Source: Vairimorpha necatrix (Eukaryota). From it: 64,000 nt of DNA. Position 1 is the stretch's first letter; each line of letters starts with the position of its first letter. Position numbers and translations under genes: made by a program. The notes under the pieces are model-generated. The model did no database searches and was not told where the DNA came from. It was given only the letters and a program-made list of their open reading frames with translations. The stretch spans positions 558,001-622,000 of the forward strand of contig CP142733.1 of NCBI GenBank assembly GCA_036630325.1, given 5' to 3'. Positions 1 to 45,033 of this stretch are shown one piece after another.

Positions 1-1239
1 TTATAGGAATAACACAATGGAAATAAAATTAATTGTTTGATTTAAATATAACCATCTCAATTAGGGGTAAGTTGTTTATGGTCAATTACAATAAATTTTT
101 AGTATCGAACACTTCATGGAATCTGGAGAATCGGGACAGATTCAAAGATAATATATTCACGAGCTGAAATATATCCTGTTGAAAACGCAATGTCGCACTA
201 TGTATCATATTTGTAGACGTAAAATAATCAAATTGAAAGCATTATATATATTATACGTATTCATATGTGAAAATTCTTTCGATTTAACGTAAACTTTATT
301 ATGTATAAATGTAGATAATAAGTCAGAAAAAATACGTAGTTATATAATAGGCAATATAGCCATAAGCAAAGTAAATGAGAGTAGATATGTGATCTCTGCA
401 AACACTATGATTAAAAATATATTTTAAGGTATTATTAGATGCACATCTTCTAGATTCATATCAATAGAGAAAGCTGAAGATAAAAAAATCAAATCATACT
501 TTTCTGAAATAAATATTAAGAAATGTTTTATTTTTGCAAAAAACCTGGCATAATACATAATCATGAAACAATAATACCATATATGATGATATAAATGTAG
601 TGGTGTCCAAATATTACAATTAGTAAAAAAACGTCATTCTACGTATACATAATTTAAAAATTTTTAAAATAAAACTTTTTGTTTATCGAAGGTTCAGTGA
701 AGAAATATACCTTTAAGGAGATGAAGAGAAACAAAAACTATAAAATAACGTGAACAAGTCAATCTTAACTTTTATTAATCTACGTATGATTCAAACGGCT
801 ATCATTTCCCCCCTGTTTTATTTTATACCCAAAAAAATTGAATATTCGACAGCCGAAAGACCATGAATTTATGAATAACGATGCTTAAAATTATTAATAT
901 ATAATAACTTTATATTAAGTGCCGGTCTAAATATTTACAACTTCAGGATTTATCTACAAATATCTAAAATATGGTTGGATTGTTCGATTTCAATAAAAAA
1001 GTATTAATGTTTAATCAAATATAGTAAAAAAAATTAAATGATTAAATAAATATTACATCAATTATAATTATGTATCTTATGAATATTGAAAGAAAAATGC
1101 GATAAGATCTAATGACATAAAACATCATTAAATTAGTATATCTTCTTTTGCGTCACTAATTTATAAACCCCAGTATTTTACAGTGAATATTAGAAAACTG
1201 AAAACAATGACAACATTAGTACTTGTCCAAAAATGAATA

Positions 1240-2260
1240 TTTTTAGATAAATTTGCACTATTCTAAGACGCAAAGCGATTTTCCACTCCAAGAAAACTGG
1301 CTACACATATCTATCCACCATAGAAGGATATATAAAAGAGAAATATAAACTTAAGGAAAACGTAACTGCTAAAATATTAATAGAGGCTCAAACCGAATCT
1401 CTTTATAGCGATATAAAAATAAAAACAAACCATTCAAAGATATTTAGACCAAGAGACGATCCACTTATTGATATAAAACAGGCTGCCATGTGGCTCACAA
1501 AAGGAAATATGAGCCCGAGGGAGGAAGGCAATTTATGTGCATTACAGGACCGAAATATTTTCTTAGAGAAACGGATAAAATGCCCACACTGCCATAATAT
1601 GGAAAGAAAGTAGATCATATGGCCACTCAATGTGATCGTATGCTTTCACATGATTACTTAAGACGGCAAAATGAGGCACTGCGATGCACCCACCTACAGT
1701 TGTGTAAGACGTATTATCTATCCCATGCCAAAAGAATTAGAAATCATTCAGTCCAGGAGTGTGTAGCTAATGAGTATATTGAGATACGAGTCGACAGTAG
1801 GATACATTCAAGTATCAAAATAAAGTATTACAAGCCTGATATACTAATTGTAGACAAGTTGAGGAAAGAAGTGATCGTTGTAAAGTTAGTATCACAAGTT
1901 TTAACAACATCCATGCAGTAGAAACAGAAAAGAAACATAAATACGACTTGCTCGCAAATCATGTGCCTTCTCTCTATAAATACAAGCAGAAAATTATTTC
2001 TTATGTGATGACGTGTGATGGAATAGTAACTTATTTTCACCGTACGCATATCAAAGTGCTCAGATTAGAACCCAGAACGCCAGCATATATACAGCCAAGA
2101 GTCCTTAAAATGACTTTAGAAAGCCTTTTATGCCAGCCAGACATGGGCTTGATACAGATCAGGAAGGGGTTTTCGAGAGCCCAATGAGTGAATCTCAGAA
2201 GGAAGTCCTGGAACTGCCAGATGAGACTGTAAGCGTATCTTGTGACAAAAAATTAATAAG
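1240..2260 (+). mobile_element. Decayed, 5'-truncated non-LTR retrotransposon with zinc knuckle and restriction-like endonuclease (R2 group, R4/Dong-like); boundaries approximate
   Basis: Joined across frameshifts at ~1608 and ~1882 it reads ..WLTKGN..LCALQDRNI..CPHC..DHMATQC..YLRRQN..HSVQE..KPDILIVDK..VSITS..ETEKKHKYDLLAN..AYIQ. These are the CCHC, RH(N/D)-equivalent, PD..E and KxxKY motifs of RLE elements. No RT domain is present. Confidence 0.88.
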
Positions 2261-3723
2261 CTGAATATTATACCCAAATAAATTATATATTTATATATGG
2301 CAAAATTATTTAAGTGTCAAAAAATTCAGGGTCAAAATGATTTGAAAATTAACTCTTTAAACATATCATATAAGGAAAAATAGTGTTAAATTCTTAACGC
2401 GTAAATTATATTTTAAAGATAAAAAATGATTAATCTACAATAAAATTTGATTTTTTTGTAGATATAAAGCTTAACAATTATCACAATATGACAAAAAACT
2501 GTTAATGTTTTTGCCAGAATGCCTTTAGATATTATTAAATTTTTTTTATAATTTTTTTTTATATGTACCATGTTCTAGTATAAGTAGACATTGTTACAGA
2601 ACTTTGTTGTATATAATTTTTTTTATAAATTGAGATAAACTTGGAAGATAATATATGAAATAATAGAATCAAAACACACGAATTTAAATGGAAAAGTGGT
2701 AGAGACTCGATTGTTTTTCTATATTGCCAAAAATTATTATTAACATAGATGTCCGTCTAACTATTCACAAAAACTAAACACACTATCAGATACTTCGTAA
2801 TACTAATTATTCATTATAGATTTATATTTTTCAAATGAAATGTATATTCTTTATTATTCATGTTTACTATGATTACATTTTAATATATTTGACCTAGCTA
2901 TTATACGATATCGTTTTTTAATTATATCCTATATTACTACGTATTAAATAATATGATGACTTCATGTACCATATATGATTGATTCGGCTTCAAAAGATTA
3001 ATTTGCAGTTTATAAAAAAAAGTATGTTGAAAATAAGAATAGTTATTTACACATTATTCAATTAACTTTTATTGTGTGCTCATTTCATTGTCTTTAAATG
3101 ATTAAATAACAAATCTAAAACGTTTCTTTATTAAATTAAATGGCAGTTTTTCCTTATCATTTGCTTTTATTTCATAATTTGTTCTTGTCAAAAGGGGGTA
3201 TTTTTAAACAATTTTGGCCCTGAATTGTTCGCCATCTAATATGAATTTTTCCTTTTTATTTCATGGCATGCTGTAAATGTTCTAATACTTTACAAATAGC
3301 AGGTATAAATTTCTACAAGTGTTTATGTTAAAAGTTTAAAAATGATATTAAATTGGCAATATATTTAATTTTTATAAATTCTGATAAATTTGATAATTAA
3401 TCATATTAAACCTATTCTGCATATATAATTTATAGTTCAAAAGATGAATCCTGTTGCTTTAAGCATTAGTTTATGGAACGTCGAATACGAACCAGTTAAA
3501 TATTTTTTTTAAAGCATTAAAACTTAGTACAACTTAATCATTAAATGATATTTCCAAGCTACGTTGTATCATATTATCACGTTTAAAAAAACAACCCCAT
3601 TTTGTAACAAATTTAATTTGACAATATTAATTTTGCATAGTCGTTATAAGTTAATTTTATGATCTTAGGAACAAATATTTAAAAGTAATAAACTTTTAAA
3701 TGAATTGTTCAATATAAAAGTAA

Positions 3724-3764
3724 ATATATATATATATATATATATATGAAAAAAGTGAAACCCC
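3724..3764 (+). promoter_or_regulatory. (AT)12 tract plus CCCC immediately before the ATG of the 3765 gene
   Basis: (AT)12 at 3724-3747 and CCCC at 3761-3764. CCC-like motifs next to start codons are typical of microsporidian genes. Confidence 0.6.
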
Positions 3765-4340
3765 ATGATATTGATTCTTTTTAATCTGCAATATATTTTT
3801 TCTATTGAGGCCATGTTTATGGTACAAAGAGATGATAAATTCGTAGATGTTTACATAAGTTTAGCAGATGAAGAAAAAAACACTACCTATTCAATTTCTG
3901 AAATGGACGATGATTATAATTTTAAATCAATTAATACGTTCAATCATAAAATCCTTATAGGAAGAAAATATAAGACGCATTACTTTCTGCCTATAACATT
4001 AAAAGAGGGAATGTATATTCATAAAATGTTAAGTTCTGTTGCAAATAATAATGTCGAACTGATGAACATTATAAATTTGTTCTACAATGGTACAGATATA
4101 CTTAAAACTACTATTACAACTGAAGATAAAAAGGTATATTACTTAGAACATGGAAAATATAATTCTGTAATACCGGATGATGCTTTCATAGTAAATTCGA
4201 AATTACACTTTCACGAATCAAAAAGCTTATTTGAACTAGAATGGTTAGATATTTTTGATAAACGTGTTGATTATAAACTTCCAAAAAAATACTTTATAAT
4301 CCGTTACAGGAAAGTACTAGATACTAAAGATATTGATTAA
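3765..4340 (+). CDS. Hypothetical secreted protein, family A (191 aa)
   Basis: CCCC-ATG start and hydrophobic N-terminus. Shares VYIS, ILKTT, YYLE and LEWL motifs with paralogues at 17012, 23017 and 24894. Confidence 0.85.
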   Translation: MILILFNLQYIFSIEAMFMVQRDDKFVDVYISLADEEKNTTYSISEMDDDYNFKSINTFNHKILIGRKYKTHYFLPITLKEGMYIHKMLSSVANNNVELMNIINLFYNGTDILKTTITTEDKKVYYLEHGKYNSVIPDDAFIVNSKLHFHESKSLFELEWLDIFDKRVDYKLPKKYFIIRYRKVLDTKDID

Positions 4341-4889
4341 CTTGTACATTTATGATATAAAATCCTCTGTAAAATTTTTTTCATTATCACAATTGTAATG
4401 ATAGTTTATAAAATAGTTTTCAGACATAGGTGAAGCACCGAAAGTAAAGAAAAAAGTACGATAGGAATTTGGTTTAATTTACGTCAAATATTAGAAAAAC
4501 TAAATACATTAATTGTCAATAGTTACAAGCTAAAATTAATAAAAAATTTTAATTTTTTTTCAAGATGATTTTTTTTTTAATTTTCATTATCGCTAAAACT
4601 GATGAAAAGTATAAAATTTCAAATTTGTATATCAAGTTTATAAAATTAACTGATTATTTAATCCACGTAATTGATAGTTTAGAGAATGAAGAAAATAACT
4701 ATAAAAATAAACTAAGACGAAACTAACATTTTGTATCAAGAAAAAAAAATTTTGCAATTGTTTTGATATATTTTCGGGTTGAGATGAAATTTTTATTTCA
4801 TCAAAAAAAAAATAATTTGAAAAAATATGAAAGCTTGTAATATTTTTTATACGAAAAAAAATTCTACTCTTTTTTGATTGCATATAACA

Positions 4890-7800
4890 TCATCATCATA
4901 TATATAAAAGAATTTTATTTAATTTTTTACCCCTCTTTTTTATGATTTTGTAAAATCCAAACTTCTTATTATAGCTTATTGTGTTATTGTAATATCAAAT
5001 TTAAACTCAATGCTTAAATTCGATAATTGTAAGTGCGTATACTATATATTAATGCATTTTTATTCTATTTATTATTTTTAGAAAACTCAGTTCCAAAATA
5101 TCGTCAGAATCGTTTTTTAGAATTTATTTAACCCTTCTAGAAAAAATTCACAATAACATTAATCAAAGAAAAAGTTGAATATAAGTGTCAAAAAATGAGC
5201 TTAAAAGTTCCCAAAATTATCTTATTGAGATAATTAATTGTTTATAAACAACATTACTCCTTATATGTCACTAAAAAGTATTTTTAAAAATTATGTTTTC
5301 TCCTTATTAAATTCATTCATCCCAAAATGGAAACTTTACAAAATTCACCGAGGAGCGACATATTAAAAAACTAAACATTTAGATCCCGTTTTCAAAACGG
5401 GAAAGCATACGCTAGTCATATATATAAAAGAATTTTATTTAATTTTTTACCCCTCTTTTTTGTGGTTTTAAAAATTCTAAACTTCTTATTATAGCTTATT
5501 ACGTTATTATAATTGCAAATTTAAACACCATGCTTAAATTTGATAATTGTAAGTGTGTATATTATGTGTTAATGCATTTTAATTCATATTATTATTTTTG
5601 TAAAACTCAGTTCCAAAATATCGTCAGAATCGTTTTTTAGAATTTATTTAACCCTTCTAGAAAAATTCACAAAAATATTAACCAAAGAAAAAGTTGAATA
5701 TAAGTGTCAAAAATTGAGCTTAGAAGTATTCAAAATTATCTAATTATGATTTTTAAGTGTTTTACAACAACATTACTCCTTATATGTCACTAAAAAGTAT
5801 TTTTAAAAATCATGTCTAAACTCTGTCAAATTTAATCAGCCAAAAATGGAAACTTTACAAAATTTACCGAGACGGGACATATTATAAAACAAACACATTT
5901 ATCCCGTTTTCAAAACGGGAAAGCATACGCTAGTCATCATATATATAAAAGAATTTTATTTAATTTTTTACCCCTCTTTTTTGTGACTTTGAAATTTCTA
6001 AACGATATGTTTTGGGTCTTTTATGTTAATATAATATCAAATATAGATTTATTGCTTTAATTTGACTATTCTAAGTGTGTATGTTATCAGTTAATACTTT
6101 TTAATTCTATTTATTATTTTTGTAAAACTCAGTTCCAAAATATCGTCAGAATCGTTTTTTAGAATTTATTTAACCCTTCTAGAAAAATTCACAAAAATAT
6201 TAACCAAAGAAAAAGTTGAATATAAGTGTCAAAAATTGAGCTTAGAAGTATTCAAAATTATCTAATTATGATTTATAAGTGATTTTAACTTCATTTTACT
6301 CCTTATATGTCACTAAAAAGTATTTTTGAAAACGATGTCAAATCCTATCAAATTCTAACATTCCAAAATAGAAACTCACAAAAATTCACCGAGGAGCGAC
6401 ATATTATAAAACAAAACATTCAAATCCCGTTTTCAAAACGGGAAAGCATACGCTAGTCATCATATATATAAAAGAATTTTATTTAATTTTTTACCCCTCT
6501 TTTTTGTGACTTTGAAATTTCTAAACGATATGTTTTGGGCCTTTTATGTTAATATAATATCAAATATAGATTTATTGCTTTAATTTGACTATTCTAAGTG
6601 TATATGTTATCAGTTAATACTTTTTTATTTTGATTATTATTTTTGTAAAACTCAGTTCCAAAATATCGTCAGAATCGTTTTTTAGAATTTATTTAACCCT
6701 TCTAGAAAAATTACAAAAATGTTTAACAATAAAAATTTAATGACAATAAATGTCAACAATTGAGCTTAGAAGTTCCCAAAATTATCTCATTGAGCTTATT
6801 AAATATTTTAAAACAGCATAACTTCTTATATGTTGCTAAAAAGTATTTTTAAAAATCATGTTTTCTCCTTTATAAATTCATTATCCTTAAATGGAAATTT
6901 AACGAAAATTACCAATTAGGGACATATTAAAAAACTAAACATTTATCCCGTTTTCAAAACGGGAAAGCATACGCTAGTCATCATATATATAAAAGAATTT
7001 TATTTAATTTTTTACCCCTCTTTTTTATGATTTTGTAAAATCTAAACTTTTTTTTATAGCTTATTGTGTCATTGTAATATCAAATATAAACTCATTGAAG
7101 GATTTTGACTATTCTAAGTGTGTATGTTATTAGTTAATACTTTTTAATTTTGATTATTATTTTTGTAAAACTCAGTTCCAAAATATCGTCAGAATCGTTT
7201 TTTAGAATTTATTTAACCCTTCTAGAAAAAATTCACAAAAATATTAACCAATAATGATTTTGAAGATTATTGTCAAATTTTGAGCGTAAAAACACAATAA
7301 AGTTATCAAATTGAATTTTATAGAATAATTTGATTTGAATTCTGTATTCAAGTTTTGCATTGGAAATAATTTTAATGTTGTTAAAAATTGCATTTCCCCT
7401 TTCTTTTCAAACCAAATATGGAAACTTAAAAAAAAATTAAGGAGGTACATACCATAAACAAAACATAATAATCCCGTTTTCCAAAACGGGAAAGCATACG
7501 CTAGTCATATATATAAAAGAATTTTATTTAATTTTTTACCCCTCTTTTTTGTGGTTTTGAAATTTTTACACTATATATTTTGAACTTATTATGTTTAAAT
7601 AATATCAAATATAAACTCAACGAAGGATTTTGGCTATCATAGGTGCGTGTACTGTATGTTAATACAGTTTCATTTTAATTCTTTGTTTTGTAAAACTCAG
7701 TTCCAAAATATCGTCAGAATCGTTTTTTAGAATTTATTTAACCCTTCTAGAAAAATTTTAAAAACAATTGACAAAAGAAGAATGTTGAATAAAAGTGTCA

Positions 7801-8026
7801 AAACTTAAGCTTAGAAGTCCCCAAAATTATCTCATTATAATTATTAAATGTTTTTAGCTCAACTTTACTCCTTATATGTTACTAAAAAGTATTTTTAAAA
7901 ATTATGTTTTCGCCTTTTCAAATTCATTCATCCCAAAATGGAAACTCACCAAAATTCACCGAAGAGCGACATATTATAAAACAAAACGTTCAAATCCCGT
8001 TTTCAAAACGGGAAAGCATACGCTAG
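4890..8026 (+). mobile_element. Head-to-tail array of six non-autonomous Helitron-like units (4890/4896-5415, 5416-5933, 5934-6456, 6457-6977, 6978-7504, 7505-8026)
   Basis: Each unit starts TC(ATC)ATATATATAAAAG and ends with the hairpin TCCCGTTTT-C-AAAACGGGA, 9 nt, then CTAG. The array sits between A4889 and T8027 with no TSD. These are canonical Helitron termini. Confidence 0.9.
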
Positions 8027-10188
8027 TTTTATTTAAAATCATTTTTAAGAAATTTTTTGCTGGAGATTGTGTGGATTTTTAACAATATTAGTAACAAATC
8101 TTTTTTGTGTTAAATAGCAAATATAAAGCTTTTTGTCTCGTAATCGAATAAAAAGTTGTTATTAAAATTTTTAATTATATGGTACAAAACCAAAGGTGGA
8201 AAAGAATAATTACTTTTTTTTTTGAATTAAATTCTACGTTATTAGTTTTCTATCTAAAGAACAAAATTAAGATGTTAGTTTTTTAGCAAACAAAAACTGT
8301 TGAGCATAAAGTATCAAAAAAGCGGGAACGGTTCGATTTTGAAAAATTAACTGTAATACACCAACAGCAAGATGTTTCAGTTTGTGAGTAACTATATTTT
8401 TCCCCAAACTCGTAGTTTTATGTCGATAATGGATACCCTTTTATAAAAATTATGATTTATAGATTAAATGTGGTAAAAAAAAATCACTTGAATTTATAGA
8501 CTTATATCAGAAAAACTTTTGTTCATGGTATGGGTGTTTTTTAAGTAAATTGAAACAACATTATTCTATGGACGACAACGTTGCAGCTATTTGTAGATAT
8601 GTTTGCCATGTAGTCATATTTAGAAATTTGCATTTAAATAGAACAAAGCATTGACGATGTAGTTTTAGTCTATCAGATTCCTTAAATCTTTTCATTTAAC
8701 GCTATTACTTATTTAAAATCTATTTTAAGATTAAATAATTTCTGTTTTTTAAAATTCTATCTAGTTTTTAGCATTTAAAATATATTTTTCTGGAGGCTTG
8801 TAAATGGCAAATTAAAATTCAACTTTTTATAAAATCTATAGAAAAATAGTGGTAAAGCACGAATATGAATTTTATTATTTGCTATAACTTTAATCAATAT
8901 GAGTAAAGTATTAAACATTTATAAATGATTCTTTCTCGAAATACGATGTTTTTTTTATTGGCATAAGAGCTAATTACAAATATTGATGCATTTGACTAAA
9001 ATAGAAGAGTTAATTTAAAAAAAATCAAACATTTTTTACATAACATTAACTTCTTTGACAAACTTCTTAGAACAGCCTAATTATAGTAAATGTTAATGTT
9101 TTATATTAGTTAATAGACTAAATAAAAAATAGAACATTGTTAGGTGCACCCTATTGTTTTCTATGTATATACAAGTATGCGATAAATAAAAATGTAAGTT
9201 CTCATGAAACCACTCATATTGGGTCATTAAATAAAGATCGCAGTAATACTAAACACAGAGGGCTACACATCGACTTCTCCACAGAATTGGAGATTAGGAA
9301 GAAGAAAAAAAAATTCGTTGGTTCAATAAACTTCTAGATGTTGTGATGCTTCTGATTAATTAGATATTTAATAATATATGCTTGATGTTTCTGTACGCGA
9401 TAATGGTTATAGTATTCTTGATGCCTTTCTAACTTTAATTGAGTGAAAAGCTTTAGCATTATTATATGGAAATTCGATATTTTGCATCGATAAAAAGTAT
9501 TTTGCTTTTAATAAATAAGGAAATGACCACTATTTTGAGTTCTTTAGATATCTATATATTATGCTGCTTCGACTTTCAAGCAAGAAACAAAAATAGGATT
9601 GATAAAAATTATAGTACTTTTAATACGTATTTGTTTCTCGTACTAATTATAGGTACTTTTTACTTTTTATACTAATTAGAACAAATTTATAATTTAAATT
9701 TTTGATCAATAATGTGTATTTAAACCACATTTAATTATTCTATAACATGTAGTTGAATATGATTCAAATTATATTTACAAAATAAATAAATGCTTACCTG
9801 ATATAGAAAATTATTAGAAATTCGCGATACTAAGAACTTTAATTATAAAACTATTTTAACAAAATCTCCTCAGATTTGTAAATGGGTTTGACATTATACT
9901 TTGGAATTTATGTGTTTTTCTTGATATACTTTTGAACTTATTTAAGTAAATTTTGTTTTTATCTTAAAATGTCAAATATTTATATAAAAAATTATGATTT
10001 CAAATCATATCAAAATGCTTTTTATTCAGATATATCTAAAATATTTAATTAGTAAATTCGTAGATAAAAATTAAATTTGTTTTGACGTTTTTAATTTATC
10101 AAGTTTGAGAAATATGCCAAATGGTATATAAATACAATATTTTTTAATGATCGTATTTTAAATTTTATATATTATGGATCTATGGAAA

Positions 10189-10491
10189 TGACACAATCCA
10201 GAGGAGCTACCTCTGGACAAATATAGTTCTATTAAATTATACGTTTTATTTATTTGATTAAAGCCTCGTTGGGCATCCGTAATGGGATACTGGTCCCTGG
10301 CTCTGAGGCCCTTCCTTGGTCGTGGATTCCAAGGGTATTGATCTTTGTCTTGTCTCATAATTTTGTTGGGGTCAGGGCAAAAAGGAAATAAATAATTGAT
10401 TTTTGGAATAGACCGGTCGAATGGTCTATTTTCCAAAAAGGGAAAATTGATAAAATAAAAATAAATAATTTGTGGTATTTATAATACCACA
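10189..10491 (-). repeat. 3' LTR (303 bp)
   Basis: Direct repeat of 14098-14400, identical by eye, with TG...CA ends. Confidence 0.96.
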
Positions 10492-10504
10492 TTCTCCCCC
10501 CTCT
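10492..10504 (-). other. Polypurine tract
   Basis: Minus strand reads AGAGGGGGGAGAA, abutting the 3' LTR and overlapping the pol TAG stop. Confidence 0.9.
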
Positions 10505-13500
10505 AAAGTTTTATGTTCTTGACATGTATCCACTCAGAGATTCCATTAACCTTTACCCATTTTCCTTTGGATCCTAATTGCGTTACCTTTCTCTTTCTTA
10601 AGTACTTCCGGTCTAATTTCGTAGCTGTCAAATTCCTTACATATACTTCGTCGCCTAGCCTGAATTTGGGAGTAGTTAATGTTTTTTTTATATTACGCAT
10701 TTGTATTGCTCTTTCTAGTGGATCATAGTATTCTTTCCCATTTAACGCAGCATTGGGGGAACATCCTATTGATCTATTATAGTTATTATTGATCACCCAT
10801 TCGCACATATCAATGGCTGTGATTATATTTTCGCCTTTCATTATAGACAGTATGAAGGTTATAGTGCGGTTTACTGACTCTGATATACCATTTGAACTTG
10901 GGGTATATGTTGGAACGCGTAAGTGCTTTATGTCCACTTCGTTTAAATATTGTTCAACTTGTTTGCTTGTATACTGCTTTCCGTTATCTGATATTAGTAT
11001 TGTAGGTTTAGATTTTGTTAATTCAGTCCAATTGCTGATTGCGCTTATAATCTCTTCTCCTCTTATTTTATATGCTAAATATAGTTTCGTGTATCGTGTC
11101 TTTATGTCTGTTACTGTAATAATAAATCCTTTATTATGCTTACCCGCGTCCTTAAATTTCTCTAAATTAAATGGACCATATATGTCCGAGCTAATTCTTT
11201 CAAGATTGTTTTCGGCTGACATATGGGCTCCTACCCCTCTTTTGACATAAGTTACTTTGTAAGCTTTGCATTTTCGACAATCATTTACTATTTGTTTGAT
11301 CCTATGGAATAGATGTGGAACATAAAAAAAATTCTTTAGATTATTGTACATTGTTGTTATTCCTCTATGGCCTTGTTCATGATGTATTTTATATAACCAG
11401 TGTTTTACTTTGTTTGGTTTCATAAAAATTTTTCCGTCTTTATTCATTTTTATCCTTTGATTTTTGTCCTTTATCATTGCATCTTTGACCATTTTTATGT
11501 ATCCATCTTCATTGTTTTTGATAATTGTGAAGCATCTCGATAAACTATCTGCAATTACATTTTCTTTACCTTCTATGTGTATTAATTTATGGTTAAATTC
11601 ATTAATGATTAACTTCCAACGACACATTCTTGAGGTTTCTAGTTTCACGTTGTTTAAGCAATTTTTACTGTCTGTTCTGACTTCTACAAAATTTCCTTGC
11701 AAGATGCCTTTAAAGTGTATGAGTGATAAAAGGATTCCAAGATATTCCTTTTCTACAATACTATAATTTAGTTCAACCTTTCCAAATTTTTTACTAAAAT
11801 ATCCAATCGGACCATCCTCTTGGTAAAGTACACTACCTATCCCCATATCAGAAGCATCACATTCTAAGGTGAATGACTTTGTGTAATCTGGGCAGATTAA
11901 TCTCGCTCTATTTTTAATAAATTCGCTTATGTCCTTAATAATGTTCTTAACATGCTGAGTCGATTCTATTTTTGCTCCTTGCTGCAGCATGTTTGTCAAT
12001 GGGAGTAATTTTGTAGACAAATTTGGTAGGAATTTTCTATACCATCCAATCGTCCCTAATAGTTTTTGGACATCTCTTTTAGTTTTTAGTCTTCTCTCTA
12101 ATATTTCTTTAGGAATCAATTTGTTCGCTGGAAACACACCGTCAGCATTTATTGTATTTCCTAGTACCGTGATTTCATCTTTCATAAAGTTACTTTTTTC
12201 AAAGTTTATTTTTACATTTTTCTCTTTGAGTTTGTTCAAAACATTTACTATTAATTTGTTGTGTTCTTCCTTGGTTTCTGAGAATAATACAATATCATCT
12301 ATGTACACGAAGCAGTTATCCACTTCGTGTAATATTTCAGTGATGTATCTTTGGAAAATTTTTGGACCCGGTTTAATGCCAAAGGGTATACGTTTGTATC
12401 GGTATTGGGCTCCCATAATCATAAATGATGTCAAGTCTCTGCTTTCTTGCTGGATTTTAATCTGGTTGAATCCGTTCTTTAAATCTATTTGAGAAAAGTA
12501 CTTATTTCTTCCCATCCTTAGTATACAGTCATCTATTTTTGGTATTGAAAAAATGTCATCTTCGATGTGATCATTTATCTCTTTAAAATTTATGACCAGT
12601 CTTAATTCACCAGTTTTCTTTTCGATAAAATATCCTGGGCTTGCGAAAGTTGCTCTAGACTTCTCTATAATATCTTCATCAAGTAATCTTTTAACCTCCT
12701 TTCTTGCTCTTTCATAATATTTGAAAGCTATATTGTAGAATTTATGTCGCGTGATATTCAACTTCTTTATAACCGAAAATCGAGCTTCATCCATTTTCAT
12801 AGAGTAAAATTTATCATTTAGTTTCTTATAATTTTCAAGGTGTGAAATATAAATTTCCTTCGAAGCAGACACATAAAGTAAACTGTTTAATCGTTCATTT
12901 AACATCTCATCCGTGTTTGTTATCGCGTCCATAAAGGGAATTTCTTCATTGTTGATAACAAGTGATTGGTTAGCAAAATCAATTGTAGCTTTATTCTTCC
13001 TTAGCCATTCAGATCCTAGTAGTAAATCGACTGGGCAATTTTTAATAATATAGAATTCAATATCCATGATAATATTTGGAGACAACCTTATTCGTATTCT
13101 AGCTTTAGTGTTAATCATTCTTTCATCTCCATTTCCAAATATAGTAGTGAAGGGCTGACACGGTTCAGCTATATGATCATTCATGTTGACCACTTGTTCA
13201 CTCACAAAATTCAAGTGTGAACCTGTATCGATTAACAATAAGTAATTATTTGAGTCTAATATTCCTATTATTTTTACTTCTTTCTGATTACTTGTTGTTC
13301 CTAGCTGAATAACCATATTATTTCTTTTTGTTTTTTCTTCAAAATGTATCGTTTTATCTTTAGTATCTTTGAGATTGTTCCGAAGTCTACAATCTCTTGT
13401 ATTGTGCGAAAAGCTCTTGTGCACACTACAATAAGGATTTCTTGATTTGCAAATTTTGCTTGTTTCATTAGGTACATATCCATTCTCGTTTCGTCTTCCT

Positions 13501-14048
13501 ATTTGAGAAATAATAGTTGATTCTAAAGTCTTTAGATAAGCAATAACGTCTGAAGTGGTCCGCGTATTAACCTCATTTTTGCAAAGTTCCATCTCAGTTT
13601 GTTTACCTAGTCCTCTAAAAAATACTTCTGAAAATTTTCTCTCAGCTTCTTGCTTAGTTAAATTATTTGGGAAACTGTAGGCATCTAACTTTTGGGAAAT
13701 ATTCTTCACATAATCTTCCAGATATATGTGGTTGCACTGCCTAACATCTTCGAGCTCCTGTGCAATTTTAAATCTCATGTTTCTAGGATAGGCAATTTCT
13801 AATAATGCCGCTCTTAATTTTAAGTATGATTTACTATACTTGGCGTTTAAAAAGTGATCACCAACTAACATGGTCCCATATATTCTTCCCATCTGCTCAT
13901 CATTCCAGCCATTGGCCTCTGCTAGATTCTCAAATTTCTGTAGCTCCACCATTGAAATTTCTGATGGTTTTTTAATAATTTTTATTTTTTCTTTACTTAT
14001 CACATCTGTTCCAGTGATCTTCATGTCGAATTCTCTGTATTCGAACAT
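10503..14048 (-). CDS. Gag-Pol polyprotein (1181 aa from the first ATG after the LTR; frame is open upstream into the LTR)
   Basis: Gag knuckle CX2HX4HX4C; protease LIDTGS; RT IDLKNGF/PFG/YIDD; RNase H CDASD..EKE..TD..ADSLSR; integrase HHCC (H..GH..CRKC) and D,D,E (SDIYGP, SDNG, NGISE). No chromodomain seen. Confidence 0.95.
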   Translation of the reverse strand: MFEYREFDMKITGTDVISKEKIKIIKKPSEISMVELQKFENLAEANGWNDEQMGRIYGTMLVGDHFLNAKYSKSYLKLRAALLEIAYPRNMRFKIAQELEDVRQCNHIYLEDYVKNISQKLDAYSFPNNLTKQEAERKFSEVFFRGLGKQTEMELCKNEVNTRTTSDVIAYLKTLESTIISQIGRRNENGYVPNETSKICKSRNPYCSVHKSFSHNTRDCRLRNNLKDTKDKTIHFEEKTKRNNMVIQLGTTSNQKEVKIIGILDSNNYLLLIDTGSHLNFVSEQVVNMNDHIAEPCQPFTTIFGNGDERMINTKARIRIRLSPNIIMDIEFYIIKNCPVDLLLGSEWLRKNKATIDFANQSLVINNEEIPFMDAITNTDEMLNERLNSLLYVSASKEIYISHLENYKKLNDKFYSMKMDEARFSVIKKLNITRHKFYNIAFKYYERARKEVKRLLDEDIIEKSRATFASPGYFIEKKTGELRLVINFKEINDHIEDDIFSIPKIDDCILRMGRNKYFSQIDLKNGFNQIKIQQESRDLTSFMIMGAQYRYKRIPFGIKPGPKIFQRYITEILHEVDNCFVYIDDIVLFSETKEEHNKLIVNVLNKLKEKNVKINFEKSNFMKDEITVLGNTINADGVFPANKLIPKEILERRLKTKRDVQKLLGTIGWYRKFLPNLSTKLLPLTNMLQQGAKIESTQHVKNIIKDISEFIKNRARLICPDYTKSFTLECDASDMGIGSVLYQEDGPIGYFSKKFGKVELNYSIVEKEYLGILLSLIHFKGILQGNFVEVRTDSKNCLNNVKLETSRMCRWKLIINEFNHKLIHIEGKENVIADSLSRCFTIIKNNEDGYIKMVKDAMIKDKNQRIKMNKDGKIFMKPNKVKHWLYKIHHEQGHRGITTMYNNLKNFFYVPHLFHRIKQIVNDCRKCKAYKVTYVKRGVGAHMSAENNLERISSDIYGPFNLEKFKDAGKHNKGFIITVTDIKTRYTKLYLAYKIRGEEIISAISNWTELTKSKPTILISDNGKQYTSKQVEQYLNEVDIKHLRVPTYTPSSNGISESVNRTITFILSIMKGENIITAIDMCEWVINNNYNRSIGCSPNAALNGKEYYDPLERAIQMRNIKKTLTTPKFRLGDEVYVRNLTATKLDRKYLRKRKVTQLGSKGKWVKVNGISEWIHVKNIKL

Positions 14049-14097
14049 GGAATTTCTATCTTCGTACTTACTATTTAATTCGTCTTTGAATTCAAAA

Positions 14098-14400
14098 TGA
14101 CACAATCCAGAGGAGCTACCTCTGGACAAATATAGTTCTATTAAATTATACGTTTTATTTATTTGATTAAAGCCTCGTTGGGCATCCGTAATGGGATACT
14201 GGTCCCTGGCTCTGAGGCCCTTCCTTGGTCGTGGATTCCAAGGGTATTGATCTTTGTCTTGTCTCATAATTTTGTTGGGGTCAGGGCAAAAAGGAAATAA
14301 ATAATTGATTTTTGGAATAGACCGGTCGAATGGTCTATTTTCCAAAAAGGGAAAATTGATAAAATAAAAATAAATAATTTGTGGTATTTATAATACCACA
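14098..14400 (-). repeat. 5' LTR (303 bp)
   Basis: Direct repeat of 10189-10491, flanked by TSD GGAAA. Confidence 0.96.
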
Positions 14401-14469
14401 GGAAATATCATTTATTTTAATTTATTTCTTATTTTATACTATTAATAAATCCAAAAAACGACGAACCCC

Positions 14470-15107
14470 ATATTTTATTTTCTTTTCATCTATTAGAATT
14501 CCTATGTACTGACATACTTTTTATTATTCGAAAAGATGAAAATTCCGAAATTTACATTGGTACAGATAAAGAAATTAATGTCGAGCAACCATCATCTCAA
14601 TATATTTTTGAAATAACTGAATCAAATAAGTTTGATTTAGAGAAATCAGGAAGAAAAAATAAACATTTAATTCGACCCCCCAAATCTCGCAATTTTTTAC
14701 CACTGAGGTATGAGGATAGACAAGCATTTGATAATAAAGTATTAAGGATTGATTATCAAAGCGATGAAGAACTTTCTCTTGCTTTCAAACTTGTGAATGC
14801 TAAAGTTGTATTAAAAACTATATTTCCATACGATTTAAAAGAACAATTTTATATAACAGCAAAGAAAATATCACTTAAAAATACTCTTGAATATTGTTTG
14901 TCAAGTAGAAGACTTAAGCTAAATCCAAACAAAGATATATACGAATTAAGGCTATGTATAACCAATAAGGTTGATAGACAATTTATAATTAATCTCCCTC
15001 AGGTCTACAAGAAATACTTGGCAATTCAATCATATATAATGAGAAGAAATGAAGAAATTCACGAACAAGAAATAATTGCGTACCAAATGGAGTATTTTTC
15101 GATGTAA
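14470..15107 (+). pseudogene. Family A gene lacking a start codon (CCCC-AT-ATT; G of ATG apparently deleted)
   Basis: Frame is open from 14472 (ILFSFHLLEFLCTDILFIIRKDENSEIYIG..) into the 14793 ORF and is colinear with the 17012 protein. There is no in-frame ATG back to the stop at 14418-14420. Confidence 0.85.
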
Positions 15108-17011
15108 GAAATAATATAACTTGTGTTTATAAAAATTCGGGTTTTTTAAATAAAGTTTTTTGAGTATTATTTGTTTTATATAAAAAATCCTTCCCGTTTT
15201 TATAAAAAACCATTGAGAGGTTTATTTTTTAAATTTTTTTTTTCTGTGAATTTAATAGAAACTTATTAAAAAATGTTTTTTCGTATCAACTCAACCAAAA
15301 TTTATACTGCAAGAAAATAATTCACTTCAAATTAAAACAGAATTCAAAAATTATCTTAATATTACATTTTAGCTTTTTTTTCGTAGATTCTATTTTTATC
15401 TGTACATAAATTTTCTAAATATCGTATTATTTTGTCTTAAACAATAATTTTCAATAGTTTTGTTTATTAGCATATATCATCATTATTTTATGATATTCTT
15501 TATAAAATTTTCTGTTTTATATTTGAGTTAAAGACAGTTAGATGGTTATTTTTGTTCATTTTTTTCAAATTATGAAAGAAAAATTATATAAGGAAAAGTA
15601 ATATATACTGTGGCACGAGCTGCCTTCTGGTCGACGACATGTCATCAAAATTTGTATAAATATGTTAATTTAAAGATTTTTTGTTATTTTTTTCATCTTC
15701 AATTTCGAGCTTAAAAATGCCTTTTTTTATAGTTATATTTTTTCGCCCGATCACATGTTTCATCTTGTAGAAAGATGTTTATATAATTATTGATAAAAGC
15801 ATATTTAGAATGTTAAACATTGCTATAGTCTCTTGATTTTAACCATTGTTAGTTTACGATGAATCATGTATAAAAATAACATCTTAGTCATTTGACAATT
15901 ATGACTAAAGTATTAGCATTTTATGATACTCTACATCTCTAGAGTTCCTTAAGAATCTCATGTGTCATATATCGGTGTAAAATATATAAAAAATGTTTTA
16001 TAAGTTACTTTTTCGAATTCATATCACCCATGCTTTAACATGGTTATTTAAATAATTTCTTACGATTATTAATTTCCGTCCTTTAAATTTAGTCTAGCGG
16101 TAAAAAATGAGTTAGTCGAAATATTATAGAACAAAAATAGTGAGGATGCGTAATTTAACAAATTTATGTAATTGCAAACATTTGAAACACATTTTATACC
16201 ATTTCAAATTATAAATATATAAAAATATATATAATCTTACACATCGTTCTGAATATATAGTATGTTAATCCTATAATTAGTGTAGTATTTTTATATGGTA
16301 CTTAAGTTTTCTTTCGGAGTATTTCTGTACTTGCATACTATTTATTATTATCTTATGAGCAATTTTATCGAGGTTTAATTATATGGCAAAAATCGTGTAC
16401 ATTTGTTCATAATCATTAATGTTCTCATTTTGTTCAATAAAAACGAGTTTTCTGGAATTGACTAAACAAAGAAGCATAATTTCAATTGCTTTTAATATTT
16501 AAGCTGATACGTTTTTTATGTATTTTTGTTTGTAAAATGTCAAAAAATTTAATTAAAACTTCAAAGATATGATTTTACGTAAGTTTCTCATAAAATATTA
16601 TAAGACGATAAAAAAAAATAACTTTTTCATGTTTGTCGTATTGCAAAATCACTAGATTGTAATTTTTTCTTTAAAATTCTCAAGATATTTTGACTATTAT
16701 TTCCAATAAAGAACTTTAAAGAAGTTAATAACTATATTCGATTATTTTTGACATTAAAAACTTCATTCCTTGAATAAATGAACTGACCTTTGTTATAAAT
16801 TTTTAATTCATATTAAATAAAAATCAAGTGTAAAAAAATATTGACGTTTTTTAATTTATCAATCTAAAGAAATTTGGCAAACTATGTAAAAACTTATAAT
16901 TTATATTTTATATTATATATATGAAAAAAATTTAAATTTTTACATAAGAAATCAAATTTTAATTTAATATTTAATTTATTCTTTTATAAATGCAAAAAAC
17001 TTCAGTGCCCC

Positions 17012-17647
17012 ATGATGTTATTTTGGTTTCCATTTTTACATAGTCTTTGCACTGGCATTATGTTTATTGATAGAAAAGATGTCGATTTTGAAATTTACAT
17101 AGGTTTTAACAATGAAATTAACGGAGACAACTATTCACCTTATCATATTTTTGAAATTTCGAATTCCTATGAATTTTATAAAGCTAAACTTATTAGAAAT
17201 AACAATTACGAATTGGTTGTAAAAGATACTCAGCATCTTCTCACTCCGTTAATGCTCGACGATAGACAAATATTTGAAAAGGATTTGAAAAAAAGTTACA
17301 GTGAAAGTGATGAAGGTCTTTCGAAACTTGTTGAATTACTTTGCGATAGTCAAGTTATATTAAGAGCGAAATTTCCATTTGATATAAATGAAAGATTTTA
17401 CATAACATTAAATAAAATCTCTCCTGATTATAACCTTGAATATTGGATAACTAGTAGAAGTCTCAAGTTAAATCGAAACCGAAATATATACGAATTAAAA
17501 TTGCGAACTATTTCAAGCTTTGATAAAAACTTTTTTGTATGTATTCCTAGGACATACAGTGAACACATAAATAGTCAATTAGAAGAGTTGGAATTAAGCG
17601 CTAACTTTGTTCTATCAGAACTTGATGAAACTATCTATATGGAATAG
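17012..17647 (+). CDS. Hypothetical secreted protein, family A (211 aa)
   Basis: CCCC-ATG start and signal-peptide-like N-terminus. LCT..EIYIG, VILRAKFPFD..FYIT and SRSLKLN..IYEL are shared with the 14470 copy. Confidence 0.88.
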   Translation: MMLFWFPFLHSLCTGIMFIDRKDVDFEIYIGFNNEINGDNYSPYHIFEISNSYEFYKAKLIRNNNYELVVKDTQHLLTPLMLDDRQIFEKDLKKSYSESDEGLSKLVELLCDSQVILRAKFPFDINERFYITLNKISPDYNLEYWITSRSLKLNRNRNIYELKLRTISSFDKNFFVCIPRTYSEHINSQLEELELSANFVLSELDETIYME

Positions 17648-22405: not shown

Positions 22406-23017
22406 TTATTTTTGAAAAAATTTAATTTTTTTTTCAAGTCTATAGGAATCATTAAAATAGGTTAGAAAAGCTCTAGAAGTAAAATCGTCGGAAAAGGTAC
22501 TATAATAATTTAACCATATTAGTTTTCCAAGATTAAACTCACCCCATAACGCAAAATTTACGCTTTTTGAATATTTACAAAATTTCATATTCAAGTCTTC
22601 ATGTATTCCAGCAATATATAAAATTTGCCCATGTAATTCGTTAATAGTAAATGTTGCTTTTAATATAATGTTGCTTTTTTCAAAATAATTTACATAATCA
22701 CAACATACTCTATTGTAATATCGAAGATGATCTATAAAAATTATAGTATTTTTTCTTTCTTCTGAAGTTATTGCCTTGAAATGATATATATATGGATTTC
22801 TTTCTCTTTCAAATTTTAAATCACAATTTTTATGTAATCTTTTATCGGTTTCTGGCATATTTAGCTTGCTGATTAAGCAAAATCTTGTGTACATGTCTTC
22901 ATGTGAAACATTATCCAAAGCTAAGTAAACATGACATACATCTTTTTTAGCATCTTTAGAAATATATAATATGTCGGAACAAAATATACATAATAATTTG
23001 AAGCAAAATAAAATCAT
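22406..23017 (-). CDS. Hypothetical secreted protein, family A (203 aa)
   Basis: CCC-ATG at 23017 (the ORF-track start at 23026 is TTG). Reads MILFCFKLLCIFCSDILYI, with VYLA, IILKAT and LIWL motifs. Confidence 0.85.
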   Translation of the reverse strand: MILFCFKLLCIFCSDILYISKDAKKDVCHVYLALDNVSHEDMYTRFCLISKLNMPETDKRLHKNCDLKFERERNPYIYHFKAITSEERKNTIIFIDHLRYYNRVCCDYVNYFEKSNIILKATFTINELHGQILYIAGIHEDLNMKFCKYSKSVNFALWGEFNLGKLIWLNYYSTFSDDFTSRAFLTYFNDSYRLEKKIKFFQK

Positions 23018-24893: not shown

Positions 24894-25418
24894 ATGATTT
24901 GCTTTATTTTTTCATTTTTATACATAAATTGTTCTGACACTTTATTAGTGGTTCCATTGAACAATGAATATGTGAATATATACATCGGCATAGTCAAATT
25001 TCGCCAAAATGATATATATATATTTACTGAATTAATTGAAAAAGATTGTGTAGGTGAAATTATAAATACTTATGATAAAAGATCAAAGGAAGGAAAAAGT
25101 ACTAAGCCGTATAATTTTAAACTTATCACTTTAGATGATAAGCTAAATCTTTTTAAGATAGTACAATGCGATAGTAAAAAAATGCAGAAAAAATTATTTG
25201 ATAATTTTATATATAGTGATGTTATACTAAAAACAACCATTCAACTAGACATTAAAAAGACATACTTCATTGAATATATGGAATCTAGAAAAGGTATAAT
25301 AAAAAAATTTGCAACCAGTGAGAAACTTATATTTGATGGATCAAAGACGATGTCTAACTTAAATTGGTTAAATATAAATCACTTTCCTTGGGGTAAAAAA
25401 TCTATCTTATCTAATTAA
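24894..25418 (+). CDS. Hypothetical secreted protein, family A (174 aa; alternative ATG at 24873)
   Basis: CCCTT-ATG, then MICFIFSFLYINCSDTLLV, with IYIG, VILKTT, YFIE and LNWL motifs. Confidence 0.85.
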   Translation: MICFIFSFLYINCSDTLLVVPLNNEYVNIYIGIVKFRQNDIYIFTELIEKDCVGEIINTYDKRSKEGKSTKPYNFKLITLDDKLNLFKIVQCDSKKMQKKLFDNFIYSDVILKTTIQLDIKKTYFIEYMESRKGIIKKFATSEKLIFDGSKTMSNLNWLNINHFPWGKKSILSN

Positions 25419-27837: not shown

Positions 27838-27853
27838 TTGATAAATCACTAAT
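27838..27853 (+). promoter_or_regulatory. Conserved upstream motif TTGATAAATCACTAAT of family B
   Basis: Identical 16-mer at 35980-35995. Both copies end at position -98 relative to the paralogue ATG. Confidence 0.7.
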
Positions 27854-27950
27854 TTAATATTTAATTAATAATTTTTTAAAAATAGTATTTCTTACAATTA
27901 TAAAACGTTTCAGGATAATATATAAAAATAAAAAAATCACAGCAAACACA

Positions 27951-35900: not shown

Positions 35901-35979
35901 CAGTTTATTTTTTTGTGTTTACACCTAAACACACCTGAAACACTTGAATCATAATTATTAGAAAAATGAAAAATTAAAT

Positions 35980-35995
35980 TTGATAAATCACTAAT
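35980..35995 (+). promoter_or_regulatory. Conserved upstream motif TTGATAAATCACTAAT of family B
   Basis: Same 16-mer and same spacing to the ATG as 27838-27853. Confidence 0.7.
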
Positions 35996-42416: not shown

Positions 42417-45033
42417 TCATCATCATATATATAAAAGAATTTTATTTAATTTTTTACCCCTCTTTTTTGTGGTTTTAAAAATTCTAAACTTCTTATTATA
42501 GCTTATTACGTTATTATAATTGCAAATTTAAACACCATGCTTAAATTTGATAATTGTAAGTGTGTATATTATGTGTTAATGCATTTTAATTCATATTATT
42601 ATTTTTGTAAAACTCAGTTCCAAAATATCGTCAGAATCGTTTTTTAGAATTTATTTAACCCTTCTAGAAAAATTCACAAAAATATTAACCAAAGAAAAAG
42701 TTGAATATAAGTGTCAAAAATTGAGCTTAGAAGTATTCAAAATTATCTAATTATGATTTTTAAGTGTTTTACAACAACATTACTCCTTATATGTCACTAA
42801 AAAGTATTTTTAAAAATCATGTCTAAACTCTGTCAAATTTAATCAGCCAAAAATGGAAACTTTACAAAATTTACCGAGACGGGACATATTATAAAACAAA
42901 CACATTTATCCCGTTTTCAAAACGGGAAAGCATACGCTAGTCATCATATATATAAAAGAATTTTATTTAATTTTTTACCCCTCTTTTTTGTGACTTTGAA
43001 ATTTCTAAACGATATGTTTTGGGTCTTTTATGTTAATATAATATCAAATATAGATTTATTGCTTTAATTTGACTATTCTAAGTGTGTATGTTATCAGTTA
43101 ATACTTTTTAATTCTATTTATTATTTTTGTAAAACTCAGTTCCAAAATATCGTCAGAATCGTTTTTTAGAATTTATTTAACCCTTCTAGAAAAATTCACA
43201 AAAATATTAACCAAAGAAAAAGTTGAATATAAGTGTCAAAAATTGAGCTTAGAAGTATTCAAAATTATCTAATTATGATTTATAAGTGATTTTAACTTCA
43301 TTTTACTCCTTATATGTCACTAAAAAGTATTTTTGAAAACGATGTCAAATCCTATCAAATTCTAACATTCCAAAATAGAAACTCACAAAAATTCACCGAG
43401 GAGCGACATATTATAAAACAAAACATTCAAATCCCGTTTTCAAAACGGGAAAGCATACGCTAGTCATCATATATATAAAAGAATTTTATTTAATTTTTTA
43501 CCCCTCTTTTTTGTGACTTTGAAATTTCTAAACGATATGTTTTGGGCCTTTTATGTTAATATAATATCAAATATAGATTTATTGCTTTAATTTGACTATT
43601 CTAAGTGTATATGTTATCAGTTAATACTTTTTTATTTTGATTATTATTTTTGTAAAACTCAGTTCCAAAATATCGTCAGAATCGTTTTTTAGAATTTATT
43701 TAACCCTTCTAGAAAAATTACAAAAATGTTTAACAATAAAAATTTAATGACAATAAATGTCAACAATTGAGCTTAGAAGTTCCCAAAATTATCTCATTGA
43801 GCTTATTAAATATTTTAAAACAGCATAACTTCTTATATGTTGCTAAAAAGTATTTTTAAAAATCATGTTTTCTCCTTTATAAATTCATTATCCTTAAATG
43901 GAAATTTAACGAAAATTACCAATTAGGGACATATTAAAAAACTAAACATTTATCCCGTTTTCAAAACGGGAAAGCATACGCTAGTCATCATATATATAAA
44001 AGAATTTTATTTAATTTTTTACCCCTCTTTTTTATGATTTTGTAAAATCTAAACTTTTTTTTATAGCTTATTGTGTCATTGTAATATCAAATATAAACTC
44101 ATTGAAGGATTTTGACTATTCTAAGTGTGTATGTTATTAGTTAATACTTTTTAATTTTGATTATTATTTTTGTAAAACTCAGTTCCAAAATATCGTCAGA
44201 ATCGTTTTTTAGAATTTATTTAACCCTTCTAGAAAAAATTCACAAAAATATTAACCAATAATGATTTTGAAGATTATTGTCAAATTTTGAGCGTAAAAAC
44301 ACAATAAAGTTATCAAATTGAATTTTATAGAATAATTTGATTTGAATTCTGTATTCAAGTTTTGCATTGGAAATAATTTTAATGTTGTTAAAAATTGCAT
44401 TTCCCCTTTCTTTTCAAACCAAATATGGAAACTTAAAAAAAAATTAAGGAGGTACATACCATAAACAAAACATAATAATCCCGTTTTCCAAAACGGGAAA
44501 GCATACGCTAGTCATATATATAAAAGAATTTTATTTAATTTTTTACCCCTCTTTTTTGTGGTTTTGAAATTTTTACACTATATATTTTGAACTTATTATG
44601 TTTAAATAATATCAAATATAAACTCAACGAAGGATTTTGGCTATCATAGGTGCGTGTACTGTATGTTAATACAGTTTCATTTTAATTCTTTGTTTTGTAA
44701 AACTCAGTTCCAAAATATCGTCAGAATCGTTTTTTAGAATTTATTTAACCCTTCTAGAAAAATTTTAAAAACAATTGACAAAAGAAGAATGTTGAATAAA
44801 AGTGTCAAAACTTAAGCTTAGAAGTCCCCAAAATTATCTCATTATAATTATTAAATGTTTTTAGCTCAACTTTACTCCTTATATGTTACTAAAAAGTATT
44901 TTTAAAAATTATGTTTTCGCCTTTTCAAATTCATTCATCCCAAAATGGAAACTCACCAAAATTCACCGAAGAGCGACATATTATAAAACAAAACGTTCAA
45001 ATCCCGTTTTCAAAACGGGAAAGCATACGCTAG
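42417..45033 (+). mobile_element. Array of five Helitron-like units (units 2-6 of the first array)
   Basis: Head TCATCATCAT is followed by the unit-2 body (gtggttttaaaaattctaaac). Same hairpin-CTAG ends. Confidence 0.9.

Follow-up and report, generated by a model that had tools for sequence, protein, structure and literature searches.

We analysed a window of 64,000 bp from Vairimorpha necatrix (contig CP142733.1, hereafter C8, positions 558001-622000 of a 15.0-Mb, 12-contig, AT-rich genome), in which positions 4890-8026 are occupied by a tandem array of six short Helitron transposons, and followed this transposon family through the genome. As far as sequence comparison can tell, the arrays of the family are random assortments of its members brought together by independent insertion. 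What is new is that unlike Helitrons are stacked genome-wide with exact ends, together with a genomic target word that mimics the element's own 5' end (the head); the arrangement itself is known in kind. Taken as a whole, the data are best explained, with what we would call slightly better than even confidence, by arrays growing copy by copy through a preference of the Rep-helicase transposase (RepHel) for resident heads, in an order biased toward the 5' side.

The array in the window and its Helitron1 family

The six units are 518-527 bp long and abut each other with zero spacer. Each unit starts with TC, ends with a hairpin followed by CTAG and joins the next as CTAG|TC, and the heads carry 3, 1, 2, 2, 2 and 1 TCA triplets; in all these points a preliminary description of the array, made from the letters alone, was borne out. 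It had also called the units clearly different inside, which holds for their pairwise identity of 0.72-0.86 but not for a head of ~50 bp, a central core of ~65 bp and a tail of ~35 bp, which are conserved at ~99% throughout the family. The features are as follows.

4889..4889, + strand: host A of the A^T target, from the empty paralogous sites on C8
4890..5415, + strand: unit 1, non-autonomous Helitron, 3 TCA, missing from the second array
4896..4934, + strand: minimal 5' head of 39 bp (TC, TATA run, AAAAG), common to the 5.1-kb autonomous elements
5082..5147, + strand: central core, unit 1 copy, from the conservation profile (96-99% across the family)
5384..5415, + strand: 3' end of unit 1 with its hairpin and CTAG, the same in all six units
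5416..5933, + strand: unit 2, 1 TCA
5934..6456, + strand: unit 3, 2 TCA, mosaic
6457..6977, + strand: unit 4, 2 TCA, best match 0.933, on C11
6978..7504, + strand: unit 5, 2 TCA, divergent right-half lineage
7505..8026, + strand: unit 6, 1 TCA, last unit, adjoining the host T, best match 0.874
8027..8038, + strand: host T of the target, then TTTAAAA at +6, a variant of the family target motif
42417..45033, + strand: second array, with units 2-6 alone and 3 TCA on its first head, within a near-identical segmental duplicate

Across all units, the two halves flanking the core are 75-85% conserved and are mosaics of alleles found also in other copies. Over its 526 bp, unit 1 shows 100% identity with C11:144544-145069, the leading unit of an array there, and it has no private substitution among 123 units. 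The right half of unit 2 matches units on C9 and C11 at 100%, and its best whole match (0.958) lies outside the array. Unit 3 resembles unit 4 in its left half (96%) and unit 2 just after the core (100%), and both stretches also occur elsewhere at 100%, in a C2 unit and a C9 unit, respectively. The right half of unit 5 is only 52-56% identical to those of the other five units, against 93-99% in windows to units on C4 and C6. The 3' hairpin of unit 1 folds at -9.3 kcal/mol (z -5.55), a value equalled by none of 200 shuffles. The core folds no better than shuffles, and Rfam returned a single match under its gathering score, leaving a structured RNA unsupported; the core has only weak similarity to the 5' region of the autonomous elements, and it might serve for protein binding or represent a hotspot of conversion. 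Tandem Repeats Finder, with its period limit of 500, does not report the array.

Genome-wide, 232 3' ends and 236 heads were found at up to two mismatches, with none in the controls, and exact junctions of CTAG with a (TCA)n head numbered 78 for n=1 and 35 for n=2, with 0 each for the reversed patterns. The genome has 22 matches to PF14214 (Helitron_like_N), and six full-length long elements of 5,125-5,132 bp are 92-98% identical to one another. Their first 39 bases are those of the short units, as established by nhmmer (positions 1-39) and direct alignment, and their 3' hairpin with CTAG is similar but not identical. An intact open reading frame (ORF) of 1,434 amino acids is kept in five of the six; we take its motifs to be the HUH, two-tyrosine and Walker motifs. 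The protein contains the Pfam domains Helitron_like_N and PIF1 and matches Helraiser (PDB 7LCC) with 1,233 bits. Because the head is shared and the partners are intact, the six units are non-autonomous elements of the canonical Helitron1 (HLE1) class with live RepHel partners. The Helitron identity suggested beforehand is thus upheld by the TC 5' terminus, the 3' hairpin with CTAG, the insertion at A^T without duplication and the RepHel partner, and the autonomous Rep/helicase element with the same termini, which had been proposed as an object of search, does exist, with the same head and a similar 3' end. Features of Helitron2/Helentron (HLE2) elements were not seen: the target is A^T and not T^T, and an endonuclease family is absent among the partner's 12 Pfam matches, while inverted terminal repeats were not separately searched.

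The sequences compared were those of 128 complete short units, or 123 once the duplicate is set aside, comprising most of contigs C1-C4 and a similarity-biased sample elsewhere, and the remaining units were placed by exact-pattern coordinates. A first chaining gave 103 chains and 230 heads, of which 16 had been added from examined loci or BLAST. The duplicate array and one inverted nested copy were then dropped, two chain pairs were merged, six elements of unknown TCA number were added and one ambiguous head was set to unknown. The resulting census holds ~231 elements at 99 loci, with 47 solos, arrays of up to 10 units and at least 115 exact junctions; 132 of the 231 elements (57%) stand behind another member of the family. 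Solo copies dispersed over A^T sites, as the preliminary description required, are present. Thirteen of 17 placed autonomous elements lie in arrays (7 first, 2 internal, 4 last).

Several loci depart from the regular form. At L024 (C5:159344-160426), each of two successive units stops at CTA, lacking the closing G, ahead of a head with two TCA. Family 3' ends are attached to longer or unrelated bodies at L069 (C4:93569, 97195), L059 (C3:12715-16316) and L062, with one unit interrupted by ~3 kb of other DNA, and these bodies are possibly composite or capture-type elements. The array front at L061 (C3:222130-222158) abuts an inverted fragment of a family 3' end, cut within the hairpin, and the last unit there comes after a 30-bp spacer of TATAA repeats.

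Composition of arrays, duplicates and empty sites

Mean identity is 0.779 within arrays (153 pairs), 0.786 between adjacent units (67 pairs) and 0.782 between arrays (7,350 pairs). Only two of 100 units have their nearest relative in the same array, and twelve pairs of units are twins over both halves, with each pair split between different arrays. Array units are thus not each other's closest relatives genome-wide, and the earlier proposal of independent insertion, rather than read-through or satellite growth, stands. No two-unit block is common to two arrays among the 123 units, which rules out block moves by read-through. Given the random assortment and the lack of shared blocks, the arrays cannot have arisen chiefly as concatemers, by amplification as a satellite or by read-through of blocks. 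Similarly, no unit is circularly permuted across a junction, against 12 in-phase twin pairs; the integration of circles by recombination at the core was rejected for this reason, and recombinational circle integration is weighed against in general.

Some local recombination between neighbours nevertheless occurs. The identities of left and right halves correlate weakly (r=0.18), three of 19 half-twins lie inside one array where 0.4 were expected, and six of 67 adjacent pairs share identical tracts of at least 60 bp, compared with 2.1% of pairs between arrays. The three-unit array L071 (C4:546069-547623, - strand) contains an exact junction-spanning duplication at C4:547623, and its middle unit is chimeric, with the right half of its unit 1 and the left half of its unit 3, a signature suggesting that this array grew by unequal exchange.

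The second array in the window has TCA counts of 3, 2, 2, 2 and 1. Positions 5416-26993 and 42423-64000 agree without a mismatch over 21,578 bp on the right side, and 1-4889 and 37528-42416 differ by one mismatch over 4,889 bp on the left side. Since the second array sits in a near-perfect duplicate, it is the same array minus unit 1 and not an independent one. The preliminary description had derived the first array from the second by adding a single-TCA unit at the head; the front unit is indeed their sole difference, but the direction does not follow from it, as both a one-TCA copy inserted at an inner A^T and a loss by recombination between heads would explain the two arrays. Because unit 1 has its 100% twin at an array front on C11 and no private substitutions, we favour a recent event in either case.

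Two further paralogous sites on C8 (637423/637424 and 683171/683172) are empty and read ATAACA^TTTTA. The left flank (100% and 94% identical) joins the right flank (96% and 88%) directly, with neither a TCA nor a duplication. As both sites are uninterrupted at A^T and lack TCA, the insertion took place at A^T without duplication, and the TCA triplets are not derived from the host. The four paralogous sites carry 6, 5, 0 and 0 units.

The surrounding region of C8 (~527000-718000) consists of at least four paralogous segments of 34-45 kb in a run. Window positions 32500-37527 exist in three copies at 100%, and 26500-30000 in two copies plus one at 96%. In the third paralog, identity is 100% on the left as far as the Helitron site and 96% on the right; this step could reflect a recent unequal exchange, a conversion tract with its end at the insertion or the tandem assembly of haplotypes.

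Target word, TCA runs and the side of growth

A T directly follows CTAG in all 52 independent 3' flanks, and an A directly precedes the head in 46 of 54 5' flanks, the others showing a TCAT prefix (4), G (3, two of them degenerate or truncated) or C (1). Genome-wide, only three ends are followed by another base than T. ATAAA starts at +5 to +11 in 27 of the 52 3' flanks, compared with 6.4 for AT-matched A^T sites and 7.4 for shuffled flanks (p=0.0005), and in 26 of 48 flanks once simple-repeat flanks and one possible decayed head were removed; the reverse-strand 5' control gave 6 of 46. TATAAA occurs in 15 of the 52 flanks versus one of 46 controls. In a fitted mixture the word lies at +6 (45%), +7 (34%) or +8 (10%), and in the element's own head TATAAAAG begins at +8. 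As a sequence pattern, the genomic target word resembles the element's own head. Among A^T sites, the head site ranks at the 98th-99.8th percentile, and head sites that leave 1, 2 or 3 TCA score 17, 1.8 and 0.2 with the matrix and 50, 8.6 and 2.2 with the mixture; the junction counts (85, 35 and 6 for 1, 2 and at least 3 TCA) follow the same order. Against 41,148 background A^T sites, the 3' flank in the window reaches the 99.2nd percentile, being itself one of the 52 flanks that trained the matrix. With regard to a possible targeting of host promoters, ORF starts lie within 300 bp in 11 of 51 downstream flanks versus four of 49 upstream flanks. Near-miss junctions with spacers of 4, 13 and 30 bp also occur.

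The commonest head everywhere has one TCA. Heads with 1, 2 and at least 3 TCA number 30, 8 and 9 among solos, 27, 11 and 10 among array fronts, 85, 35 and 6 among junction heads, and 40, 10 and 0 among last units. The preliminary description had assumed an element that starts with TCATCAT and brings two TCA per unit, which had to be abandoned: one TCA is the mode (in 30 of the 47 solos and 85 of the 126 heads at junctions), and two per unit are found at only 13 of 93 fully scored loci, with a mean of 1.48 (n capped at 3), so that the ten TCA in the five units of the second array are a coincidence. Ten heads carry at least four TCA; the six readable ones have exactly four. A junction without TCA was not found at up to one mismatch; creation of TCA by insertion inside the minimal head was rejected on this count, and displacement therefore shifts TCA runs and does not make them. 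TCA numbers differ within three of nine twin groups and consequently change faster than the 520-bp body, while two twin groups keep a 2- or 3-TCA head at both sites.

The distribution of these runs has a partial polarity. Heads with at least three TCA account for 10 of 48 fronts, six of 126 junction heads and none of 50 last units, an excess at fronts (p=0.001) and a deficit at last units (p=0.002) in within-array permutations. The TCA number at the front climbs with array size over the 48 arrays (rho 0.35, p=0.013), and seven of 23 fronts have a twin of at least 99%, where 3.5 were expected (p=0.038). In simulations, models with insertion at the front only, at any A^T head or at all junctions fit alike. 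The longer TCA runs at fronts and the shortest ones on last units speak, with moderate weight, for insertion 5' of resident copies. The earlier idea that displaced TCA accumulate at the front is supported by the front excess and the last-unit deficit, but solos match fronts (9 of 47 versus 10 of 48 with at least three TCA) and displacement creates no TCA. Free variation of TCA number in solos, which had been named as a sign against that idea, is thus what solos display, just as fronts do.

A number of observations weigh against growth by head preference on the 5' side. The short motif alone predicts, over ~3.6 million oriented A^T sites, that at most 0.3% (likelihood ratio 50) to 6% (likelihood ratio 1000) of insertions fall at heads versus the 57% seen; as a sufficient cause of stacking it was rejected, being too weak by more than tenfold. 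The motif windows were picked after the flanks had been inspected, and the site leaving no TCA scores top in one model (72) and is never used. Over all loci, the correlation of TCA number with size is lost (rho 0.16, p=0.13), and fronts are not richer in TCA than solos (p=0.53 and 1.0). No age gradient along arrays appears in four proxies (paired first versus last unit, p=0.37-0.63, 18 arrays). A twin burial test leans to the head over the tail (2 versus 6 later insertions needed) without significance (p=0.15-0.18), the twin-position and burial tests being underpowered at 123 units. The sequence comparison covers 123 of ~231 units. The simulations are coarse, with priors and scaling set by us, and none yields the observed 19% of solos with at least three TCA, the best reaching 7-14%.

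We propose that an active non-autonomous Helitron1 family is mobilised by co-resident elements encoding the 1434-residue RepHel, and that arrays would grow singly, with donors from anywhere in the genome. RepHel would cut at an A^T that has, 5-7 bases downstream, a TATAAA-like word, a likeness of its own 5' end, and one binding mode might serve both donor head and target. A resident head would be a ready-made target, in which the A of the host together with the element's T re-creates A^T after insertion, and each additional TCA would supply another A^T. Because the short motif explains a few percent at most, we infer that specific binding of RepHel to the 39-bp head gives most of the preference; binding of the full head could supply the roughly hundredfold preference missing from the motif. 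Autonomous and short elements are stacked on each other though they have only these 39 bp of head in common. The newcomer would enter 5' of the resident, leave it one or two TCA and carry the rest in front, mostly at the array front and probably also at internal heads with at least two TCA. The last unit would be the founder, presumably unit 6 in the window, and the order would be 5'-biased rather than strictly chronological, with recombination between neighbours now and then adding, removing or chimerising units. The extra TCA might have a separate source, for which our guess is a short duplication of the 5' end in an aborted cycle of nicking, extension and rejoining; it fits because TCAT-prefixed heads and one 13-bp partial head exist. 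More tentatively, and with considerable doubt, the 5' terminus of the RepHel element could be regarded as its preferred, self-renewing landing pad, in the manner of an HUH site-specific integrase, the target choice of Helitrons in general as relaxed left-end recognition, and the arrays as front-grown chronological logs of the family's activity, marked by displaced TCA, and as recombination sites for re-mobilised mosaics. If true, a eukaryotic enzyme would be at hand that inserts repeatedly, in order and without a scar at a 39-bp pad.

With the head corrected to one TCA, strict growth at the front alone would turn the arrays into exact chronological records. Such growth fits the census as well as any-head models if loci may differ in attractiveness, and the TCA excess at fronts, the front twins and the window arrays differing at their front agree with it. 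At equal locus rates, however, none of 1601 simulations reaches the observed size variance, and the solo fraction deviates (p=0.0006). Internal heads with 3-4 TCA would require poorly scoring outer sites, both members of one 100% twin pair lie away from fronts, at least one insertion on C9 is nested in a unit body whose remainder was retained, one array was enlarged by unequal exchange, and the age gradient is absent. We consider strict front-only growth unlikely. The ordered and polarised record envisaged in the preliminary description is favoured by the TCA gradient and the front twins, but not by the ages of units, by any separation of front-only from any-head growth or by the integrity of neighbours, some of which have exchanged sequence; a strictly time-ordered record is possible and unproven.

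Growth at the tail, in which RepHel would nick the resident CTAG^T and join it to the newcomer's 5' end while TCA gather in place at old fronts, is chemically plausible, as Helraiser cleaves junctions of right and left terminal sequences (RTS-LTS; PMC5876387), and was offered as a model by Du 2008 (PMC2267711; statements on cited papers refer, here and below, to their accessible parts). With in-place TCA gain it comes near the census (best d 17.9 versus 12.5-14.0), but it is accepted about 3-50-fold less than 5'-side models at d<20 to d<40, and without such gain none of 7562 simulations passed the threshold of d<25, compared with 0.8-1.3% under the other models. G precedes only one of ~52 intact genomic heads, and three of nine twin groups lack a last or solo member versus one of nine lacking a front or solo member. 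These results make tail growth quite unlikely.

Homologous recombination could also build arrays, by circles integrating into residents or by unequal exchange expanding existing arrays. The mosaic units, the half-twins in one array, the duplication at C4:547623 and the tracts shared by adjacent pairs point in this direction, and a crossover within the shared head would mimic head insertion. The twins are nevertheless in phase and never permuted, autonomous and short elements are stacked with 39 bp in common, some junctions contain spacers, and identity within arrays is not above that between arrays. Recombination as the builder of the arrays seems to us decidedly improbable. Rolling-circle concatemers, or a satellite diverged in place, are largely refuted by the rarity of nearest relatives in the same array, by 100% single-unit twins in unrelated arrays and by arrays that mix autonomous and short elements, even though CTAG|TC equals a circle junction (PMC4778049) and tandem Helitron arrays in bats and plants have been so interpreted (PMC5876387, PMC2267711).

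Relation to known systems and other features of the window

The family is like Helibat1/Helraiser (PMC4778049, PMC5876387, PMC11417382) in its TC start, hairpin with CTAG, insertion at A^T without duplication and Rep-helicase partner. Helraiser inserts at A^T with a preference for an AT-rich 3' flank, and the precise CTAG|TC junctions of its circles are both made and cleaved by it (PMC4778049, PMC5876387). In the accessible text its preference is described as AT-richness rather than in terms of a spaced TATAAA word resembling its own 5' end; stacking on residents is not described there, unlike the 57% of stacked copies here. The accessible parts of a wheat study (PMC13286980) and of HELIANO (PMC11417382) give the target as A^T only. 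Our literature search, which left most subscription papers and supplements outside, found no Helitron target motif that copies its own 5' end.

One head-to-tail pair of unlike Helitrons was reported by Du et al. in 2008 from the maize r1 region and attributed to consecutive insertion; a 5' A^T and a 3' G^T model were both given and the order was left open, and in a polymerase chain reaction survey only the left element was found alone (PMC2267711). The CTAG|TC junction between dissimilar elements is as in the window arrays. In contrast to the single maize pair, the present family offers a census of junctions, longer arrays, the TCA marker and a paralog series of 0, 5 and 6 units that tilts to the 5' side. 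In Fusarium, FoHeli elements inserted at, or 2 bp from, the 5' end of another copy, and their repeated 5' termini of 31-85 nt were ascribed to self-insertion (PMC5148889, PMC13342296); FoHeli is of the Helitron2 type, with few cases and no census in the accessible text, and the repeated 5' piece here is the 3-nt TCA. Tandem dimers of transposable elements can arise by double insertion, with independent insertions at one site seeding arrays (PMC5932611), and a preference of Helitrons for sites close to other Helitrons has been reported (Yang and Bennetzen 2009, as quoted in PMC12477314). Neither case, as far as described in these sources, involves the base-exact targeting of an element's own terminus proposed here. 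TrwC, an HUH nuclease that integrates into its own target, provides an analogy for a nick site as landing pad, in the part of its literature accessible to us, and array growth on the 5' side recalls the polarised acquisition of CRISPR, again as an analogy and with a polarity that is partial here. The present family belongs to neither group; it has no conjugation system, Cas1-Cas2, repeat-spacer architecture or evidence of host function.

The 2008 maize paper left open whether head-to-tail Helitron arrays originate as concatemers or by 5' or 3' insertion, and target choice past A^T has so far been described, in the accessible literature, only as AT-richness. This family is active and has intact transposases, many exact junctions, TCA triplets that can be counted, empty sites and a motif that can be measured and matches its own head, which opens both questions to direct tests. 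Should head recognition prove true, it would point to a landing pad defined by sequence for a HUH transposase of eukaryotes, and also to a means by which a transposon does less harm to a compact genome.

Besides the Helitron arrays, the window contains a long terminal repeat (LTR) retrotransposon at 10186-14400 (- strand) and again at 47193-51407, with identical 306-bp terminal repeats and one frame of 1294 amino acids with Pfam protease, reverse transcriptase, RNase H and integrase domains, in an order that we take to suggest Ty3/gypsy. Five frames of 190-240 amino acids with hydrophobic N-termini (3759-4340, 14421-15107, 16925-17647, 22406-23029 and 24834-25418) look like a divergent multigene family; the first of them has no Pfam match. 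A short frame at 1251-1613, repeated at 38778-39140, presumably resembles a piece of a non-LTR retroelement protein.

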